This document shows positions 20,208-47,490 of a stretch of DNA of 64,000 bases, one piece after another (the first letter of the stretch is position 1; each line of letters begins with the position of its first letter). The notes below the pieces were generated by a model. That model did not search any database, was not told the DNA's origin, and saw nothing but the letters and a program-made list of their open reading frames with translations. The stretch is from Escherichia virus TH58: sequence record MT446423.1; one strand, given 5' to 3'. Both the position numbers and the translations under genes were made by a program.

Positions 20208-20843
20208 ATGAAAACTACTCCTATTACTATCGCTATTGACGCAATCATAAAACAAGCTTCTTCTTTGGCCGCTATGGCCAAAGTAATTAGTCAAAACCCT
20301 GCTCGTTATAATGCTATTCTAGAAACTCTTCGACGCCCAGGACTTAGTAATTATGAAAGTCGTGTAATTATTACAGGTGTTGGTAAGAACGCTAATATCG
20401 CAACTAAAGCTTCTGAGACTTTTGCTTCATTAGGTATTCCTAGCATGTATTTGAACACCGGGCATTATTCTCACGGCGATGCAGGATTCATTGCGCCTAA
20501 TGATGTGTTGATTCATATTAGTCGTTCTGGTAAAACTGAAGAAATGATAGGCGTGGCTAAGCATCTTAAAATGATTCGTCCGAACGTCAAACAGATTCTG
20601 TTGCATTGTAACCCAGACATTCCACAAGAAAATGAAGCCCTTTTTGATTACTCTTTCTGTACAGGCATCGCAGTAGAGGTTGATGAGAATTCTCTGGCTC
20701 CGACTATGTCCACTACATTGTTGTTAGCGCTTATCGATACGTTTGCTATCAACCTTTCGTCTGAACGTGGATTTACCTCTAATGACTTCCTTAAGTTCCA
20801 CCCTGGTGGTGCACTAGGTGCCATGTTACGAGGCGAACAATGA
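20208..20843 (+). CDS. SIS-domain sugar-phosphate isomerase, arabinose-5-phosphate isomerase-like (no CBS domains)
   Basis: GVGKNANIATKASETFASLGIPSMYL..HGDAGFIAPNDVLIHISRSGKTEE matches the KdsD/KpsF/GutQ SIS signature; not found at this locus in T4. Confidence 0.8.
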   Translation: MKTTPITIAIDAIIKQASSLAAMAKVISQNPARYNAILETLRRPGLSNYESRVIITGVGKNANIATKASETFASLGIPSMYLNTGHYSHGDAGFIAPNDVLIHISRSGKTEEMIGVAKHLKMIRPNVKQILLHCNPDIPQENEALFDYSFCTGIAVEVDENSLAPTMSTTLLLALIDTFAINLSSERGFTSNDFLKFHPGGALGAMLRGEQ

Positions 20844-21024: not shown

Positions 21025-22710
21025 ATGAAAAAAGCTGTTATTCTTGGTGCTGGACTGGCAACTCGTTTGTATCCAATAACGCATCATATTCCTAAGGTGC
21101 TTGTTAACTATAAACAAGACACTATTCTGAGCAATTTGTATACAATTTATTCTGACCTTGGCGCAGATGAAATTATTGTAGTAGTTCATTCAAAATTTGC
21201 TGAAACCGTTCGAGCTTATTGTGAGCAAGAAGGGTTCAATGTGACTATTCGTACAGTTGATGAAGCATATGGTTCTGCTTATGCTCTTGCTAAATTGCAC
21301 AAAGATTTAGACGGTCATAATGTAATTGTTAACTGGTGTGATATTATTCCCGATTTTGGTTCATGGTCTTGGAATGTTAACGCAATCTATGTTAAGGGTG
21401 ACGAATGTCGATATAATTTCGACGGTGAAAATATCACTAACGTAGGTTCAACAGGTGGTAATGTTGTAGGAATTTATCAGTTCAAAGACTGGGAATTCTA
21501 TATGGGTTCTACTGATGAGGAAATTCATGAATACTGCAAAGGACGTGATTTCGTAGAATTCCTTTACGGCAGCGCATTCAATAAATCAGAGCTTATGAAT
21601 CTAATTGATTTAGGTGATATGCCTAAACTTGAAAAGGCTCATGAAGTTCGTGAACTTAATCGTAGTTTTAATGCGGTTGAAATTGGTGAAGAAACTGTAA
21701 CTAAATTCGCATTAACCGAACAGGGCCGATCTCTTCAGAAAGATGAGATTTCATGGTATCTTAAAGTGAAATCAGATTCAGTTCCTCAGTTAGTTTCTGT
21801 TAATGAAAATAACTTTGAAATGGAACGCATTAAAGGTAAGCCGGCATTTGAATATATTAAATCCAAATCGAGTCTTGCTCGTCCACAAATTGTTGATGCA
21901 ATTTTAGATGCACTGAAATTCAGCACAGACACTTATTTTGTAAGTCCTGAAACTGTTCGTCGTGATTTCACTAAAGAATTCTATACTAAAGTCATCGATC
22001 GTTGTGAAAGTATTCAACCATTGATTGATTCATTTGGTAAAATCACACATGTGAACTACACTAAGATTGGACGTCTGAAGCCAATGTTGAAACAAGCTTT
22101 AGAACACCTTATTCGTTATCATAACCGTTCTCAGGGACAGTACTCTGTTATTCATGGTGACCCGAACTTCAGTAATACTATGATTACTGATAATGGTGAA
22201 GTAAAGTTTATCGACCCTCGTGGATATTTTGGTGAAACCAAGATTTACGGGCCAAAATTGTATGACGAAGCTAAAGTGCTTTACGCTGTTTCAGGTTATG
22301 ATGAATTCAACGCCAATCCGACCTGGGGACAGTTTACTATTGATGAAATAACCTGTAATGTGACTATTAACATCAATCCATTAGTTTACAAATATGGAAA
22401 GATGAGTTCGTTTAACGTGTATCATCATTTGGCAGTGGCAATTATCTGGATTGCATTAGGTGGTTATTTCAAGAATAATCCACTTAAAGCGGTAGCCGCA
22501 TATTATAAAGGTATGGAACTTCTGACTAAGCAATTACGTAACATGGGCCGTGTACTTCAGGACGGCACTATTAGTTATGATGTAGCAGAACCTGTAACGG
22601 CTACTCTGATTACAAAAAATCCTGGTAAATGGGTACTAACTGATAAAGAAACTGGTGTTTCTTATCGTCCAATCGGTGGCGATAACACTCATCAATGGGA
22701 ACGAATCTAA
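21025..22710 (+). CDS. bifunctional sugar-1-phosphate nucleotidyltransferase / sugar kinase (561 aa)
   Basis: N-terminal GAGLATRL nucleotidyltransferase signature; C-terminal choline-kinase/APH-like kinase fold with HGDPNFSN catalytic loop and FIDPRGYF. Confidence 0.75.
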   Translation: MKKAVILGAGLATRLYPITHHIPKVLVNYKQDTILSNLYTIYSDLGADEIIVVVHSKFAETVRAYCEQEGFNVTIRTVDEAYGSAYALAKLHKDLDGHNVIVNWCDIIPDFGSWSWNVNAIYVKGDECRYNFDGENITNVGSTGGNVVGIYQFKDWEFYMGSTDEEIHEYCKGRDFVEFLYGSAFNKSELMNLIDLGDMPKLEKAHEVRELNRSFNAVEIGEETVTKFALTEQGRSLQKDEISWYLKVKSDSVPQLVSVNENNFEMERIKGKPAFEYIKSKSSLARPQIVDAILDALKFSTDTYFVSPETVRRDFTKEFYTKVIDRCESIQPLIDSFGKITHVNYTKIGRLKPMLKQALEHLIRYHNRSQGQYSVIHGDPNFSNTMITDNGEVKFIDPRGYFGETKIYGPKLYDEAKVLYAVSGYDEFNANPTWGQFTIDEITCNVTININPLVYKYGKMSSFNVYHHLAVAIIWIALGGYFKNNPLKAVAAYYKGMELLTKQLRNMGRVLQDGTISYDVAEPVTATLITKNPGKWVLTDKETGVSYRPIGGDNTHQWERI

Positions 22711-23096
22711 TGCACCGTGTAAAAAACATGCTTAATCTTTGTTTTGACGTCGATGATTGTATAACAGAGTGGAATAACAATCGTGATTACGTGAACTTCA
22801 AACCGGACGTCGAAATGGTGTCTGCCATTAATGCCCTGTATGATGCAGGGCATACCATAACGCTTTACACTGCTCGCGGTATGAAGTCAGTCGGTCCTGG
22901 TCGTATAGCAATTGACATTCTCCCAAGTCTGATTCAGAACTTGGCAAACATTGGATTGAAGTACCATAATTTGCTAACACATAAACCAGTATATGATTGG
23001 ATTATCGACGACAAAGCTATGCGTCCTGACGAATTCAAAGCTCTTATGAATAAAGGCGAATTCGAAACATTTAAATCATATAAACCGAATCTATAA
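22710..23096 (+). CDS. HAD-superfamily phosphatase (128 aa)
   Basis: HAD motif I FDVDDCIT, motif II LYTARG, motif IV IIDDKA; start may instead be ATG 22695. Confidence 0.65.
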   Translation: MHRVKNMLNLCFDVDDCITEWNNNRDYVNFKPDVEMVSAINALYDAGHTITLYTARGMKSVGPGRIAIDILPSLIQNLANIGLKYHNLLTHKPVYDWIIDDKAMRPDEFKALMNKGEFETFKSYKPNL

Positions 23097-23150: not shown

Positions 23151-24311
23151 ATGAATACCTTTAAAATCGGAACGAATTTTGATTTAGCTCTTCTTGATAA
23201 AATCGTAGAGCTCAATAAAACTTATCCTAATAGCTTGATAAACGAAGTATACGGCTCTACAAGAGAAATGGCTTTTGTAGCAGCCAGACCTGATTTTAGG
23301 CTTCCTGACGTTGACAAAAAGATGTTAGAAGATTACGTTAAACGTTGTAACGAATTAGGTATTTGCTTTAACTATACACTCAACACGATAAATCCTGGTT
23401 CAAAAAGAGAACTAGTTGAGTGGAAGAAGAAAGCTATTCAGGATTATGTTCAGTATCTTTGGTCAATAGGTGTATGGCGTATTACTATCGCTAACCCTGT
23501 TGTTATGGAAATTGTTCGTGAAGTCAATAAAGACATTGAGATTGAAGTTTCAACAATTCTACATGTCGATGCTGTAACTCAAATCAAATACTTGCATGAC
23601 CAATATAATATCAAAAAGGTCTGCTGTGGAATTCACAAGAACCGTTCAGTTTCTTTCCTGAAGCGTGCAGCAGAGTTTTGCAATAAGAACAATATAATAT
23701 TTGAAGTTCTTGTAAATGAGTTCTGTTCTAATGCTGGTAAAGGGTATACAACACATTGTAGTTATCGTGACTCTTGCTATATTTTCCATAGCACCGATGT
23801 TACAGTAGATGATGCCAAATCCTTAAATGGATATCCAATGCAACACTGTATTAAAGCTCGTGATACAGATCCATTTAACTGGTTGAGAACTCGTTTTGTT
23901 CGTCCTCAAGATTTGAAACTTTATAATGATATTGGTATCACTCAATTCAAAGTTTCAGGACGTACAGGTAGCACAGACTACATTTTGAAAGTTCTTGAAG
24001 CATACGCTTCTGAAAAGTTTGAAGGTAATTTGTTAGAACTGTGGAAGCCTTTAGAGACTATTTTCACTCTTGAAAACGAAACTGAGTTTTCACATACAGT
24101 AAATATTGAAACCTCTTTGTTAGATGGCTTTTTAGAAAAAAGGTGGTTCAAACATCCAGATTTCGATTGTGCTAATGAAATCTGCGGGACGACGTGTACA
24201 TATTGTGAAAGATATTATAAACGTCAGTTATCTAAAAATGGGTTATCAGAAAACTCTATATCTATTATTGATATAACTAACTCTGACGACGCTTTGAGGT
24301 ACCCAGAATGA
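23151..24311 (+). CDS. Cys-rich enzyme of unknown function, possibly TIM-barrel / peptidase-U32-like (386 aa)
   Basis: Alternating beta-strand/helix pattern and EVLVNEFCSNAGKGYTTHC segment loosely resemble U32-family proteins; C-terminal CANEICGTTCTYC cysteine cluster; assignment uncertain. Confidence 0.55.
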   Translation: MNTFKIGTNFDLALLDKIVELNKTYPNSLINEVYGSTREMAFVAARPDFRLPDVDKKMLEDYVKRCNELGICFNYTLNTINPGSKRELVEWKKKAIQDYVQYLWSIGVWRITIANPVVMEIVREVNKDIEIEVSTILHVDAVTQIKYLHDQYNIKKVCCGIHKNRSVSFLKRAAEFCNKNNIIFEVLVNEFCSNAGKGYTTHCSYRDSCYIFHSTDVTVDDAKSLNGYPMQHCIKARDTDPFNWLRTRFVRPQDLKLYNDIGITQFKVSGRTGSTDYILKVLEAYASEKFEGNLLELWKPLETIFTLENETEFSHTVNIETSLLDGFLEKRWFKHPDFDCANEICGTTCTYCERYYKRQLSKNGLSENSISIIDITNSDDALRYPE

Positions 24312-24589
24312 TTTCTAGAAAAACTTTTAACCACCAACTTAATGAAGAGATTTTGACTACGAAAATTAACAGCAACGAACAAATTCTTAAAAAGGCCCTT
24401 ATTGGCCTGTTTGAAACTAAAGCGGCTAAAGTGATTAAAGAACCTGTTCAATTGTAATACTACGCTGATGCATTTCTTCATAGTGTTCTTGGAAATATCG
24501 ATGCTGAAGCTTTACGTTATATCAACACCGCTAAGAAATTCAAATAAGCTTTATGAATTGAGTATATAATAAATTGTATTGAGGTAAAC

Positions 24590-25306
24590 ATGGGAAAACA
24601 TAACACAATGAAATATATTAAAGCCGCAGATTTTCAATCCGCATTTAAAGCTGTCAATCGTGAAATTTTAGAAAACCCGGAATTCGTTACTGATTCTCGT
24701 ATTGGACGTTGTAATGAAATTGGGTCTATGACAGTAGTTGTTGACACTCCATCATCATTCAAAATGACCGACCCACGTATTAACCGCATCTCTTATGAAT
24801 ATGCTGAAGATTTCTGGAAGTTTATGATTTCTGGCGGTACCGACGCAGAAGAAGCATTTAAGGCATATCCTAATGTCGCTAAATTTATTTCTAAACCAAA
24901 ATCAGATGCTTTGCCTGCGAACTTCAACACTTTCTATGGTCCACGAATTGCGGCCCAGTTACCAGCTCTTCTCAAAGAACTTAAAGAGAAACCTAATTCA
25001 CGAAGAGTTGTGTTCCAAATTCTAGAAAGTTCAGATCAGGCTTTGCTTGATTCGGACGAAACACTTGAATATCCATGTACTGACTCAGTGACTTATTATA
25101 TTCGTGATGGTAAGCTTTATACCCACTGTCATATGCGTTCTCAGAACTGTGCTGTTGTTATGCAGTTGGATTTTTATCTCCAAGGAAAATTACTTCATTA
25201 TATCGCTAACGAATGTGGTGTAGAAGTTGGTGATTATACTCATACCATGGTAAGTGCCCATGTGTTTGAACGTGATTTTGATTATGTTAAAGGATTCCTT
25301 GACTAA
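24590..25306 (+). CDS. 42: dCMP hydroxymethylase gp42 (thymidylate-synthase fold)
   Basis: 238 aa; TS-family active-site region PCTDSVTYYIRDGKLYTHCHMRSQNCAVVMQLDF; position between gene 43 and uvsX. Confidence 0.82.
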   Translation: MGKHNTMKYIKAADFQSAFKAVNREILENPEFVTDSRIGRCNEIGSMTVVVDTPSSFKMTDPRINRISYEYAEDFWKFMISGGTDAEEAFKAYPNVAKFISKPKSDALPANFNTFYGPRIAAQLPALLKELKEKPNSRRVVFQILESSDQALLDSDETLEYPCTDSVTYYIRDGKLYTHCHMRSQNCAVVMQLDFYLQGKLLHYIANECGVEVGDYTHTMVSAHVFERDFDYVKGFLD

Positions 25307-26205
25307 TGGCTATTTTCCGCGTACCTATCTTGAGTATGCGGTCTTATGAAACTGGTCAGTATGCTATCCTTAAGGATGGTAACTTCCAACTTCATTTGCA
25401 CCGTGCTAATCCAGGTGATGTGATTACATATCCACGTAATGCATCTGATATTAAAGAATGTGAACGTCTTTTCCCAGAATTTAAGTTTGTTCCATTATGG
25501 TATAAAGATAACGCGTATAACACTCGTAAATATTTCTGGTCTGAAAATGAATTTGTGGTTGATTCATTAATTGCTTATTATGATTGTGATTTTCTAATCA
25601 CAGATATCACTGGATATGACGGCGCTTTTGATGTGGAATTCAATTTCAATATCACTGCAGACCCTAATAAACCGCGTTTTTATATTGACGAATTCTTAAA
25701 AACCGACATGTTGTCGGTTAATCGTTCACTTCAAACTACTGTGTTGAATGAACGTCAAAAGGAAGTGCTGGTTAACGCTGGTGCGGATGGTAATAAGATT
25801 ATCGTAACGCAGAAAGTTATACGTCCTTCCATCATGCAGCGTCTTGTAGGTGATTTGGCTCCTATTCATCTAGATGGTATTTTTCATCCATTTCGAATTA
25901 GTGACCCGTGCTATCGTTTTGAACAAGTGGTTGAATGTGCAATTCAATTAGGTCAACCGCTTTATATAACCGATCCAAATAATAGCTTCGACAGAAATAA
26001 GTATCCTGAAGAAGCGCTGATTCGAATTTTTAAACCAACTAAAACTGAGTACTATCAAATTCTTAAAGGTCGGCCGAAGATTCAATATTTCGAAAATCCT
26101 GAAGAAGTATTCCATCCAGGTCTTGGCGAGTTCATCTACTTTAACGCTTTAATTTCTTCGCCGTATAATATACCTAAATATGAAGATGTCGTAATCGAGG
26201 AATAA
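25306..26205 (+). CDS. putative glycosyltransferase at the beta-gt locus (candidate hmC-DNA arabinosyltransferase), 299 aa
   Basis: Occupies the T4 beta-gt position but is unrelated to beta-gt; C-terminal FEQVVECAIQLGQPLYITD resembles a GT-B donor-binding segment; function inferred. Confidence 0.5.
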   Translation: MAIFRVPILSMRSYETGQYAILKDGNFQLHLHRANPGDVITYPRNASDIKECERLFPEFKFVPLWYKDNAYNTRKYFWSENEFVVDSLIAYYDCDFLITDITGYDGAFDVEFNFNITADPNKPRFYIDEFLKTDMLSVNRSLQTTVLNERQKEVLVNAGADGNKIIVTQKVIRPSIMQRLVGDLAPIHLDGIFHPFRISDPCYRFEQVVECAIQLGQPLYITDPNNSFDRNKYPEEALIRIFKPTKTEYYQILKGRPKIQYFENPEEVFHPGLGEFIYFNALISSPYNIPKYEDVVIEE

Positions 26206-26206
26206 A

Positions 26207-26755
26207 ATGGCTAAAATTATTTTAGTAGATGGCCCGGATAATGCTGGTAAAACAACTTTCATTAATGACATAATGGAAATTAGTGAAAGATATGTAAAGA
26301 TTGATTTCCCTAAACGAACAGTTGACGGACGTTTCGATGTTAAGTCTCGAAATGAAGTTGGTTGTTTCGAAACGATGTTGAATTATTTAGATCCTACTAA
26401 GATTTATCTGTTAGACCGTGGATATATTAGTAACTGGGTTTATGGACGTATTCGTCAAGATGCTGACTCGGTTCTTGACGTTTATGAACAGGATTATGTT
26501 CGTCTTTGCCAAAACCACGATGTGTTCACAATTATTTTAACACGTAACGAAATGACTGAAAGTTTTGAAGACGACCTTATTACTTTGTCTTCATTCGGTT
26601 TTAATACAGTAATTTCATATTTTGAAGAGTTTGCAATCCATAACGAAATCCAAACGTATCAATTACTTAATCATGATGGTGCTAACAAAGTTATAGGATT
26701 TAATGCAAGCGAACGTAATAATTTGATTACAGAAATTATCAAATGGGCTCGTTAA
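26207..26755 (+). CDS. P-loop kinase, nucleotide-kinase-like (182 aa)
   Basis: Walker A ILVDGPDNAGKTT at N-terminus, LDRGYISN downstream; thymidylate/deoxynucleotide-kinase-like architecture. Confidence 0.6.
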   Translation: MAKIILVDGPDNAGKTTFINDIMEISERYVKIDFPKRTVDGRFDVKSRNEVGCFETMLNYLDPTKIYLLDRGYISNWVYGRIRQDADSVLDVYEQDYVRLCQNHDVFTIILTRNEMTESFEDDLITLSSFGFNTVISYFEEFAIHNEIQTYQLLNHDGANKVIGFNASERNNLITEIIKWAR

Positions 26756-26854
26756 GAGCCTGTTTAAAGTTTTAAATGCTGTATAACCCTTAGTATATAA
26801 TCGTCTTATCTTTTAAACATGAGTAAAATATAATGATGCCTATGGAAAAATACA

Positions 26855-28027
26855 ATGTCTGATTTAAAATCTCGTCTGATTAAAGCTTCTACTTCTAAAA
26901 TGACTGCAGACTTGACTAAGTCTAAGTTGTTTAATAATCGTGATGAAGTCCCTACTCGTATTCCGATGTTGAATATTGCATTAGGTGGTGCACTGAATGC
27001 TGGGTTGCAATCAGGCTTAACTATTTTTGCTGCTCCTTCTAAACACTTTAAAACGTTGTTTGGACTGACCATGGTTGCAGCATATATGAAGAAATATAAA
27101 GATGCAATTTGTTTGTTCTATGATTCAGAATTTGGTGCTTCAGAATCTTATTTTCGTTCAATGGGTGTTGATTTAGACCGTGTAGTTCATACTCCTATTC
27201 AATCTGTCGAACAACTTAAAGTTGATATGACTAATCAGCTTGACGCGATTGAACGCGGTGATAAAGTTATTATCTTTATCGATTCAATCGGTAATACTGC
27301 ATCTAAGAAAGAAACTGAAGATGCATTGAACGAGAAAGTCGTAGGTGATATGTCTCGTGCTAAGGCACTTAAATCTCTTTTCCGCATTGTGACTCCTTAT
27401 CTGACTATTAAAGATATTCCGTGTGTTGCAATTAACCATACCGCAATGGAAATCGGTGGATTGTATCCTAAAGAGATTATGGGTGGTGGTACAGGTATTC
27501 TTTACTCTGCTAACACTGTATTCTTTATCTCTAAACGTCAGGTTAAAGAAGGTACAGAATTGACGGGTTATGACTTCACGTTGAAAGCAGAAAAATCTCG
27601 CACCGTTAAAGAAAAATCTACTTTCCCAATCACGGTTAATTTTGATGGCGGTATTGACCCATTCAGTGGCTTGTTAGAAATGGCAACTGAAATTGGTTTT
27701 GTAGTTAAGCCTAAAGCTGGTTGGTATGCTCGTGAATTCCTTGACGAAGAAACAGGCGAAATGATTCGTGAAGAGAAATCGTGGCGTGCTAAAGCTACTG
27801 ATTGTGTAGAATTCTGGGGACCATTGTTTAAACACAAACCTTTCCGAGATGCAATTGAAACTAAATATAAACTAGGTGCTATCTCTTCTATTAAAGAAGT
27901 TGATGATGCTGTTAACGACCTTATTAATTGCAAAGCAACAACTAAAGTTCCGGTTAAAACTTCTGATGCTCCGTCTGCAGCAGATATTGAAAACGACCTT
28001 GACGAAATGGAAGATTTCGATGAATAA
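26855..28027 (+). CDS. uvsX: recombinase UvsX (RecA-like)
   Basis: 390 aa; Walker A APSKHFKT; acidic C-terminal tail; T4 synteny. Confidence 0.95.
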   Translation: MSDLKSRLIKASTSKMTADLTKSKLFNNRDEVPTRIPMLNIALGGALNAGLQSGLTIFAAPSKHFKTLFGLTMVAAYMKKYKDAICLFYDSEFGASESYFRSMGVDLDRVVHTPIQSVEQLKVDMTNQLDAIERGDKVIIFIDSIGNTASKKETEDALNEKVVGDMSRAKALKSLFRIVTPYLTIKDIPCVAINHTAMEIGGLYPKEIMGGGTGILYSANTVFFISKRQVKEGTELTGYDFTLKAEKSRTVKEKSTFPITVNFDGGIDPFSGLLEMATEIGFVVKPKAGWYAREFLDEETGEMIREEKSWRAKATDCVEFWGPLFKHKPFRDAIETKYKLGAISSIKEVDDAVNDLINCKATTKVPVKTSDAPSAADIENDLDEMEDFDE

Positions 28028-46389: not shown

Positions 46390-47490
46390 ATGAAAGTTAT
46401 GTTTATCCCATCTCGTGCGGTCCCATTTAATCCTGACCGTGTACAAGGTGGCCTTGAAGCAGTACATTTAAATGTGTTGAAATATTTAGTTTCTATTGGT
46501 GCTGATATTGATTATATCGGTTTTGATAATGACACGTTTGGTGACTGGAAAGTTACACACCATCCTGTTGGTCATCTGACTAAATTCAGTCTAGGTATGA
46601 GTTATACTATGGCTCGTAAGATTGTTGAACTAGCCGGCATCCATGAATACGATTTTGTTGTTACTATGGAACCGACTAAACTAACCGTTCAGGCAATTAA
46701 AGACGCAGGTCTCTCTAAAGTTCATAAGAATTTTATGGCAACACCATTTGAACCGGTATCTCGTGGCATTGTTCAAATTTGGGACCAGACTATTCAAATT
46801 CATAAGAATGGTGGTAAGAGTTATGCTCCTACTAAAGCCTTCCGTGAATTTGAACGTAAATATTGTTATATGACTTCAGGTCTGACTGACAAAATTGATT
46901 ATGATTATTGGCGAGCAAATCCGTTGTTTGAAGCCGAAGATTATCCGGTTATTTGTTTGAATGAGAAACCTGAAGTTCTTCCGGCGACTGATTTGATTAT
47001 TAGTGCACAACGTTATGACACTAAAATGCGTCGTACTGATGTTGCTCTTGAAGCGATTAAAGCACTAGGCGAAAATGGTGTAGGATATTGTCCAAGCAAA
47101 TGGGCACCACCAGCTAAATATCCTGTTATTATTGATGCTCAACATAGTGAAATCATGGAACGTCTTAAAACAGCTAAAGCACTTATTAATACGTGTCCTG
47201 ACACAGGTACGGTAGAGAATAGTTCTATTGAAGCCATCTCTAAAGGTGTCCCTGTAATCCAGTTAGTTTTTAAGGATTATCCTCATGCGACATTCGAATA
47301 CGACCCAGATACTGTGCGTGTAGAAATTGATTCCTCTACTCCTAAGAAAGAAGTAGTTGCGCTTTACACAAAAGCTGTATTAGAATTCACTGACACATAC
47401 GAAGCTCGAGTTAAACGTGCTGAAGCAGTATGGAAGAAGTATAATCGAGATGCAGTTGTTGCGATGTGGGATAAAATCTTCACAGCGTAA
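46390..47490 (+). CDS. GT-B-fold glycosyltransferase (GT1/GT4-like), 366 aa; second candidate DNA-modifying glycosyltransferase
   Basis: N-terminal MKVMFIPSRAV..GGLEAVHLNV and C-terminal GTVENSSIEAISKGVPVI resemble GT-B donor-binding motifs; absent from T4 at this locus. Confidence 0.6.
   Translation: MKVMFIPSRAVPFNPDRVQGGLEAVHLNVLKYLVSIGADIDYIGFDNDTFGDWKVTHHPVGHLTKFSLGMSYTMARKIVELAGIHEYDFVVTMEPTKLTVQAIKDAGLSKVHKNFMATPFEPVSRGIVQIWDQTIQIHKNGGKSYAPTKAFREFERKYCYMTSGLTDKIDYDYWRANPLFEAEDYPVICLNEKPEVLPATDLIISAQRYDTKMRRTDVALEAIKALGENGVGYCPSKWAPPAKYPVIIDAQHSEIMERLKTAKALINTCPDTGTVENSSIEAISKGVPVIQLVFKDYPHATFEYDPDTVRVEIDSSTPKKEVVALYTKAVLEFTDTYEARVKRAEAVWKKYNRDAVVAMWDKIFTA

Follow-up and report, generated by a model that had tools for sequence, protein, structure and literature searches.

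In the stretch of 64,000 nucleotides of Escherichia virus TH58 analysed here (MT446423.1, hereafter the window), two open reading frames (ORFs) lie between a 238-aa thymidylate-synthase homologue (24590..25306, Pfam PF00303) and uvsX (26855..28027). The first, on the + strand at 25306..26205, starts with ATG and encodes 299 aa, with FEQVVECAIQLGQPLYITD at aa 205-223; the second, also + and with an ATG start (26207..26755), encodes 182 aa and has the N-terminus MAKIILVDGPDNAGKTT. A sequence-only reading of the window had placed two ORFs at the T4 beta-gt position, and both were recovered in the ORF list exactly where it had put them and with the peptides it had quoted; the T4 order at the equivalent place (42 / b-gt / segA / uvsX) agrees with this placement. 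The synthase homologue and the two ORFs are tightly packed genes: the stop of the former overlaps the start of the 299-aa ORF (TAATG), and one base separates the TAA of the latter from the ATG of the 182-aa ORF. Both ORFs are real genes and not chance, because the 299-aa protein has 138 homologues in a large protein database and its gene occurs in 348 phage records (it is a 'hypothetical protein' or unannotated in all 60 records listed), and because the 182-aa protein matches PHROG 761. A scan for promoter-like sites (23 vs 31 expected) and terminator-like sites (5 vs 4.4 expected) was uninformative.

Over 24500-27000, the window shares about 98% identity with more than 150 genomes of Mosigvirus (RB69-like phages), and its gene order is that of annotated Mosigvirus genomes. 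In an annotated relative, the DNA polymerase is followed by a phosphosugar isomerase, a nucleotidyl transferase, HAD, peptidase U32 and a small ORF, and then by a 'thymidylate synthase', a hypothetical protein, a P-loop NTPase, uvsX, 40 and 41. The supply genes of the arabinosyl-5-hydroxycytosine cluster (RB69 gp45-gp55 / HY126 Afh) and its second glycosyltransferase (GT) are all present in the window, together with the two genes of interest:

20208..20843, + strand: SIS-domain arabinose-5-phosphate isomerase, RB69 gp55 orthologue (NCBIfam KpsF/GutQ, E 2e-32; KdsD, E 7e-31)
21025..22710, + strand: bifunctional sugar kinase / NDP-sugar pyrophosphorylase, RB69 ORF53_52c, HY126 AfhE-like (Pfam NTP_transferase at aa 3-99)
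22695..23096, + strand: HAD phosphatase, RB69 gp51, HY126 AfhF-like (E 2.8e-87 to PDB 9iqw; NCBIfam capsule biosynthesis phosphatase)
23151..24311, + strand: Peptidase-U32-family protein, RB69 gp50 (Pfam PF01136, E 6e-11; weak NCBIfam match to UbiU)
24590..25306, + strand: thymidylate-synthase-family flavin-dependent 5-hydroxy-dCMP synthase, RB69 gp48 orthologue (236/238 to PDB 9iqc/9ir2)
25306..26205, + strand: compact GT-B glycosyltransferase, RB69 gp46:47 orthologue, proposed initiating alpha-arabinofuranosyltransferase
26207..26755, + strand: thymidylate-kinase-fold dNMP kinase, RB69 gp45 orthologue
46390..47490, + strand: second glycosyltransferase, 366 aa, RB69 ORF003c/gp3 orthologue (E 5.5e-250 to PDB 9iqz/9ir0, 'phage HY126 glycosyltransferase')

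The isomerase would supply Ara5P from ribulose-5-P, as proposed in PMC13326640, and the HAD phosphatase has been given the role of taking the 5-phosphate off Ara-1,5-P2 (PMC13326640). The bifunctional enzyme, which also has weak kinase-family matches at aa 308-409 (Pfam) and matches sugar-1-P nucleotidylyltransferases in NCBIfam, is assigned to making UDP-arabinofuranose, and orthologues of the 366-aa GT have been proposed to attach the second, beta-linked arabinose (both PMC6024577, PMC13326640). For HY126, PDB structures exist of the synthase, the HAD phosphatase and the 366-aa GT, but of no homologue of either the 299-aa or the 182-aa protein.

The identity of the synthase defines the base on which these enzymes act. 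The upstream gene had been read from sequence as gene 42, but it encodes a 5-hydroxy-dCMP synthase and not a dCMP hydroxymethylase: it is identical at 236 of 238 positions to the crystallised protein of phage HY126, and only 25% identical to T4 gp42. Its translation contains an RSQN motif, which puts Asn at the position of D169 in ThyA, and Asn at this position of E. coli ThyA is the signature of 5-hydroxy-dCMP (5hodCMP) synthases (PMC13326640). The RB69 gp48 and DLP3 gp80 enzymes convert dCMP to 5-hydroxy-dCMP using O2 and flavin, and RB69 DNA carries beta-D-Araf-(1-3)-alpha-D-Araf ether-linked to C5-O of cytosine (PMC13326640), a corrected structure of the modified base that was confirmed in another Mosigvirus, NP (PMC13390438). 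The Asn signature in the window protein and the published structure of the base therefore place the acceptor hydroxyl on the ring, and not on a hydroxymethyl group. Because of the near-identity of the neighbouring protein to the HY126 5-hydroxy-dCMP synthase, we take the acceptor to be 5-hydroxycytosine (5hoC), not hmC, and we rejected an 'hmC arabinosyltransferase' on the same grounds.

Sequence comparisons said little about the 299-aa protein. As had been noted, it does not resemble beta-gt (BLASTP against T4 beta-GT, best E 3.7). It matched no Pfam family at E <= 0.1, including Glycos_transf_1 and Glyco_trans_4, and had a single, spurious match in NCBIfam (E 0.12). The family profile (44 sequences) retrieved nothing below E 1.7 among all PDB sequences, and thus links the protein to no GT family by sequence, a point against a transferase. 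PHROG annotation and phmmer also gave no usable class, and structure prediction alone was informative. The AlphaFold2 model built on the 44-sequence alignment is of high confidence (mean pLDDT 94.9, pTM 0.89) and has two Rossmann-like domains with an inter-domain cleft, i.e. a GT-B fold, although the protein is short for a GT-B. Structure prediction and Foldseek thus bear out the fold proposed from sequence. In this model, aa 205-223 cover helix 1 and strand 2 of the C-terminal Rossmann domain, the one that would bind the donor; the segment had been correctly placed as donor-binding, even if a short motif is by itself an insufficient basis for such a claim. The Foldseek search returned members of the same superfamily, with UDP-GlcNAc 2-epimerases about level with MshA (TM 0.61). 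This ranking also weighs against a transferase: UDP-GlcNAc 2-epimerases have the GT-B fold, yet they are not transferases.

The family has 33 invariant positions, with relatives down to 36% identity. They include an N-terminal group (S10-M-R-S13, K23-D-G-N26) and a C-terminal group (F193, P195-F-R197, D200, T222, P224-N225, K246, H270-P-G272). R197, K246 and H270-P-G272, candidate donor-binding residues (Arg/Lys for the diphosphate), lie at the expected loop and helix starts, and a classical E-x7-E was not seen.

The assignment of this pair is already known, because it has been published as a prediction, by the same methods, for the orthologues in RB69: gp46:47 is the predicted 'arabinosyltransferase 1' and gp45 the predicted 'nucleotide kinase' (PMC13326640; NAR 2026; bioRxiv 2025.06.16.659550). 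The hypothesis of that study is that gp46:47 and DLP3 gp79 attach the first arabinose, and the mono-arabinosylated Thanatos has this GT alone. With UDP-Araf or UDP-Arap as donor, none of the DLP3 GTs, gp79 among them, arabinosylated 5hoC-DNA when assayed individually; the third arabinose alone was reconstituted, by DLP3 gp76+gp77 on RB69 DNA, and the authors could not distinguish between a mononucleotide and DNA as acceptor of the first sugar (PMC13326640). The Thanatos protein TH1_063, found by the same structural route, is reported to form UDP-xylose from UTP and xylose-1-P instead, and did not glycosylate DNA, dCMP or dCTP in an assay that left out 5-hydroxylated acceptors (PMC12838424). 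In the literature that we searched, the coverage of which is incomplete, we found no transferase activity for any member of the 299-aa family. These results, and the position of the epimerases in the Foldseek ranking, could mean that the 299-aa protein, with its GT-B fold, is an NDP-sugar enzyme, epimerase-like or UDP-pentose-forming as reported for TH1_063, which contributes to the synthesis of the donor, and that another protein attaches the first arabinose. We consider this improbable, and the distribution of the gene, described below, argues for an initiating transferase. The claim that the protein is the best positional candidate for an hmC-DNA arabinosyltransferase thus survives in part: the GT-B fold and the locus uphold a candidate for the first arabinosyltransferase, on a base that is 5-hydroxycytosine.

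The 182-aa protein is indeed the Walker-A kinase described from sequence: it matches PHROG 761 'thymidylate kinase' (E 5e-45) and its P-loop is kept invariant. Across 21 sequences of the family, G9, D11, G14, K15, T16, F34, P35, K36, D70 and R71 do not vary, and the family profile is in register with vaccinia TMPK (LDKSGKTT...FPQR) and yeast TMPK (LDRTGKTT...FPER...DRY). The NMP-kinase fold is closest to TMPK. Because of fold and motifs, we classify the protein as a divergent TMPK-type dNMP kinase and not as a sugar kinase. Of the two roles suggested earlier, nucleotide kinase or part of sugar activation, the former holds, and the latter was rejected given the dNMP-kinase fold and motifs and a sugar kinase encoded elsewhere in the cluster. 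An ordinary dTMP kinase, boosting dTTP supply and unrelated to cytosine modification, would have the same fold and motifs, and several GenBank records do label the gene 'thymidylate kinase'. Yet the protein scores 15.6 bits against TIGR00041, far below the cut-off of 83.25, has no match to PF02223 (Pfam), and is distributed with the module of GT and 5hodCMP synthase rather than with T4-like phages in general; T4 lacks such a gene at this locus. T4-type gp1 phosphorylates dTMP, and this substrate is thus already covered. We therefore find a role in dTTP supply unlikely. To judge from its genomic context, the substrate of the kinase is presumably a C5-modified dCMP instead of dTMP. The T4-gp1-type dNMP kinase of RB69 already phosphorylates 5hodCMP in vitro (PMC13326640), which leaves the need for a second kinase unexplained and counts against the pathway that we propose.

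What our analysis adds to the published prediction is the packing of synthase, GT and kinase and its conservation in distant phages. Using the GT family alignment, we retrieved 58 viral-contig loci and scored their ORFs by family profiles; many of these loci are close relatives, so that the counts do not represent independent events. Directly 5' of the GT, 48 of the 58 loci have a ThyA homologue. The cluster includes a kinase homologue in no fewer than 53 of 60 loci; this gene is immediately 3' of the GT in 38 of the 60 that could be assessed and elsewhere in the cluster in 12 more, as in the JS98-like and Marfa-like groups, where it has the HAD gene on one side and the synthase or U32 gene on the other. 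In three of the ten 'negative' loci, an ORF beside the GT has a weak match to Pfam Thymidylate_kin. The pattern spans GT identities from 98% to about 25%, and synthase, GT and kinase form a conserved, tightly packed block in very distant phages. A 169-kb metagenomic phage retains synthase, GT and kinase (54/38/30% identity) behind a Flavodoxin_2 gene, and arabinose genes are absent within 8 kb. Another locus has dUTPase_2 / GT47-like / kinase / GT / U32 beside a Pol III alpha replicase and RecA, and yet another has a UDP-galactopyranose mutase beside the GT. No GT-kinase fusion was found in 138 GT homologues or 27 kinase homologues, and the sole fusion encountered joins a HAD phosphatase to the GT (locus L054). 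Since GT and kinase follow the base-hydroxylating gene whatever the sugar, the pattern fits a base-directed initiating transferase and a kinase of a modified pyrimidine nucleotide, and does not fit an enzyme of the sugar pathway.

We thus regard it as probable that the 299-aa protein is an initiating, probably retaining UDP-Araf:5-hydroxycytosine alpha-arabinofuranosyltransferase and the 182-aa protein a dNMP kinase of modified dCMP. In the pathway that we propose, the synthase would hydroxylate dCMP to 5-hydroxy-dCMP, a reaction shown for its counterparts in RB69 and DLP3, with the four genes that precede it known or predicted to make UDP-arabinofuranose. The 299-aa GT would bind UDP-Araf in its C-terminal Rossmann domain (F193-x-P-F-R197...D200, T222-x-P-N225, K246, H270-P-G272) and place the first arabinofuranose, in alpha linkage, on the 5-hydroxyl of 5-hydroxycytosine, after which the 366-aa GT would attach the second sugar. 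The kinase, with ATP, would make modified dCMP into the diphosphate en route to the dNTP pool. Synthase, GT and kinase are translationally coupled and inherited together as one module.

By analogy with the T4 paradigm, the acceptor of the GT may be 5-hydroxycytosine in newly replicated DNA, to which we give about an even chance; a smaller share of the probability goes to the mononucleotide, and what is left to neither acceptor. On this less likely mononucleotide reading, glycosylation precedes replication: the GT would arabinosylate 5-hydroxy-dCMP, the kinase would serve Araf-5-O-dCMP and the polymerase would use the glycosylated dCTP, with only the later sugars added on DNA. In favour of this, the three genes form a single translationally coupled block, and this block is kept in very divergent phages, among them phages that differ in their sugar pathway or have a Pol III alpha replicase. 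The secondary GTs, shown to act on DNA, have no kinase linked to them. If the gp1-type kinase covers 5hodCMP, the second kinase has no substrate of its own unless the nucleotide carries the sugar, and no GT1-family protein was active on 5hoC-DNA in vitro, where mononucleotide and DNA could not be separated as acceptors. The GT family is also acidic (median pI 5.1). A phage would gain from keeping its DNA free of bare 5hoC: this base is mutagenic in DNA, from which E. coli Nth and Nei excise it. Polymerases generally tolerate C5 substituents on dCTP. Against this, characterised phage DNA glycosylation is post-replicative in every case. 5hoC readily enters DNA when the synthase and the gp1-type kinase are co-expressed (PMC13326640). 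The linkage could also result from an inherited module in which the kinase serves 5hodCMP, as is needed in phages lacking gp1. The evidence from pI and from negative in vitro results is weak, and we gave little weight to pI as a sign of DNA binding.

By carrying arabinosylated 5-hydroxycytosine, a large group of T4-like phages is protected from restriction enzymes, DNA glycosylases and some CRISPR systems, and many phages considered as therapeutics against E. coli, Klebsiella and Acinetobacter belong to this group. The 299-aa gene is the leading candidate for the first-sugar step, the one step of the pathway without demonstrated activity in the literature searched, and its conserved pairing with the kinase provides a handle on where glycosylation starts, at the nucleotide or on DNA. 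If glycosylation did precede replication, this would be the first glycosylated dNTP to serve as a natural replication substrate.

Comparison with known systems places the pair closest to RB69, whose gp46:47 (ORF046c+ORF047c) and gp45 are orthologues with no substantive difference, except that a sequencing frameshift divides the GT in the GenBank record of RB69, whereas the window has one intact ORF. Orthologous or analogous pairs of GT and kinase lie beside a 5hodCMP synthase in DLP3 (gp79/gp78), Thanatos (TH1_063/TH1_064, the former directly 3' of the ThyA homologue) and Rhizobium phage RL38J1 (gp215/gp214). The window GT is 45.9% identical to that of Acinetobacter phage DLP3 and 47.5% to that of Shewanella phage Thanatos, and the sugars differ: tri-arabinose in DLP3, a mono-pentose in Thanatos and hexoses in RL38J1.

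Similarities to better characterised enzymes are more distant. Type I thymidylate kinases (vaccinia 2v54, yeast 1tmk, human TMPK) have about 15% identity to the window kinase, below curated cut-offs. Retaining GT4 enzymes (sucrose-phosphate synthase 6kih, BshA 6n1x, MshA 3c4q, PimA 2gej) are 7-12% identical to the window GT, in which their canonical E-x7-E is not evident and that region has instead the invariant H-P-G. The alpha- and beta-glucosyltransferases of T4 share with the window GT the GT-B fold, the b-gt slot and, if the window GT acts as proposed, a UDP-sugar donor and an acceptor hydroxyl at C5 of a modified cytosine. They differ from it in having no sequence similarity, in transferring glucose rather than the proposed arabinofuranose, and in using a hydroxymethyl group where the acceptor hydroxyl would here be attached to the ring, and the window GT is 50-100 aa shorter than they are, and acidic.

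The kinase does not lie downstream of the glycosyltransferase (GT) in the JS98-like (L015-L019, L024), Marfa-like (L009-L011) and Proteus/Providencia phage (L029-L030) loci. In these three groups it is found between the HAD phosphatase gene and either the synthase or the U32 gene. Adjacency of GT and kinase is thus common, not obligatory, and membership of the cluster is retained.

The cluster also encodes a peptidase-U32-family protein, with counterparts in viral contigs carrying distant GT homologues:

window 23151-24311, U32 protein of the cluster
L053:6909-8048, L055:5783-6862, L057:9061-10176 and L059:6870-7970, U32 in distant loci

These four distant loci combine a kinase-like gene, a GT homologue and U32, and no ThyA homologue was detectable within 6 kb in any of them. 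U32 is absent at this locus in phages of aerobes (Acinetobacter, Pseudomonas), although it is likewise missing from JS98-like E. coli phage loci.

Among NCBIfam models, the U32 protein of the window weakly matches UbiU, an O2-independent ubiquinone hydroxylase. In rRNA and tRNA, 5-hydroxycytidine and 5-hydroxyuridine depend on other members of the family, RlhA and TrhP. In gut phages, U32 may back up the O2-dependent flavin enzyme by providing a path to 5-hydroxycytosine that needs no oxygen.

The cluster of the window has no Flavodoxin_2 gene (NAD(P)H-dependent FMN reductase-type). Two loci carry one upstream of the ThyA homologue, which fits the dependence of 5hodCMP synthases on flavin:

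L004:6715-7275, Flavodoxin_2 gene, immediately upstream of the ThyA homologue
L002:605-1123, Flavodoxin_2 gene, ~5 kb upstream of the ThyA homologue

Two further ORFs of the window deserve mention:

window 24308-24457, 49-aa ORF ahead of the synthase gene, overlapping the U32 stop codon
window 46390-47490, 366-aa ORF, orthologue of RB69 ORF003c, matching 9iqz/9ir0

Relatives have a small ORF, annotated as hypothetical protein, at the position of the first. The second lies 20 kb from the main cluster. It is essentially identical (E 5.5e-250) to a protein with crystal structures, 9iqz/9ir0, entitled "phage HY126 glycosyltransferase"; its product is the proposed second arabinosyltransferase. Its comparison with the 299-aa GT revealed no detectable sequence similarity.

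Two viral contigs show other arrangements around the GT homologue:

L054:5443-7104, GT homologue with a fused N-terminal HAD-type phosphatase domain (DFDG...SGDS...GDD)
L056:5218-6198, UDP-galactopyranose mutase gene, directly after the distant GT homologue and the ThyA homologue

The fusion, seen in this one distant contig, directly follows a ThyA homologue and precedes SIS and AfhE-like genes. The mutase gene suggests a galactofuranosyl-5-hydroxycytosine variant at L056, similar to that described for Rhizobium phage RL38J1.
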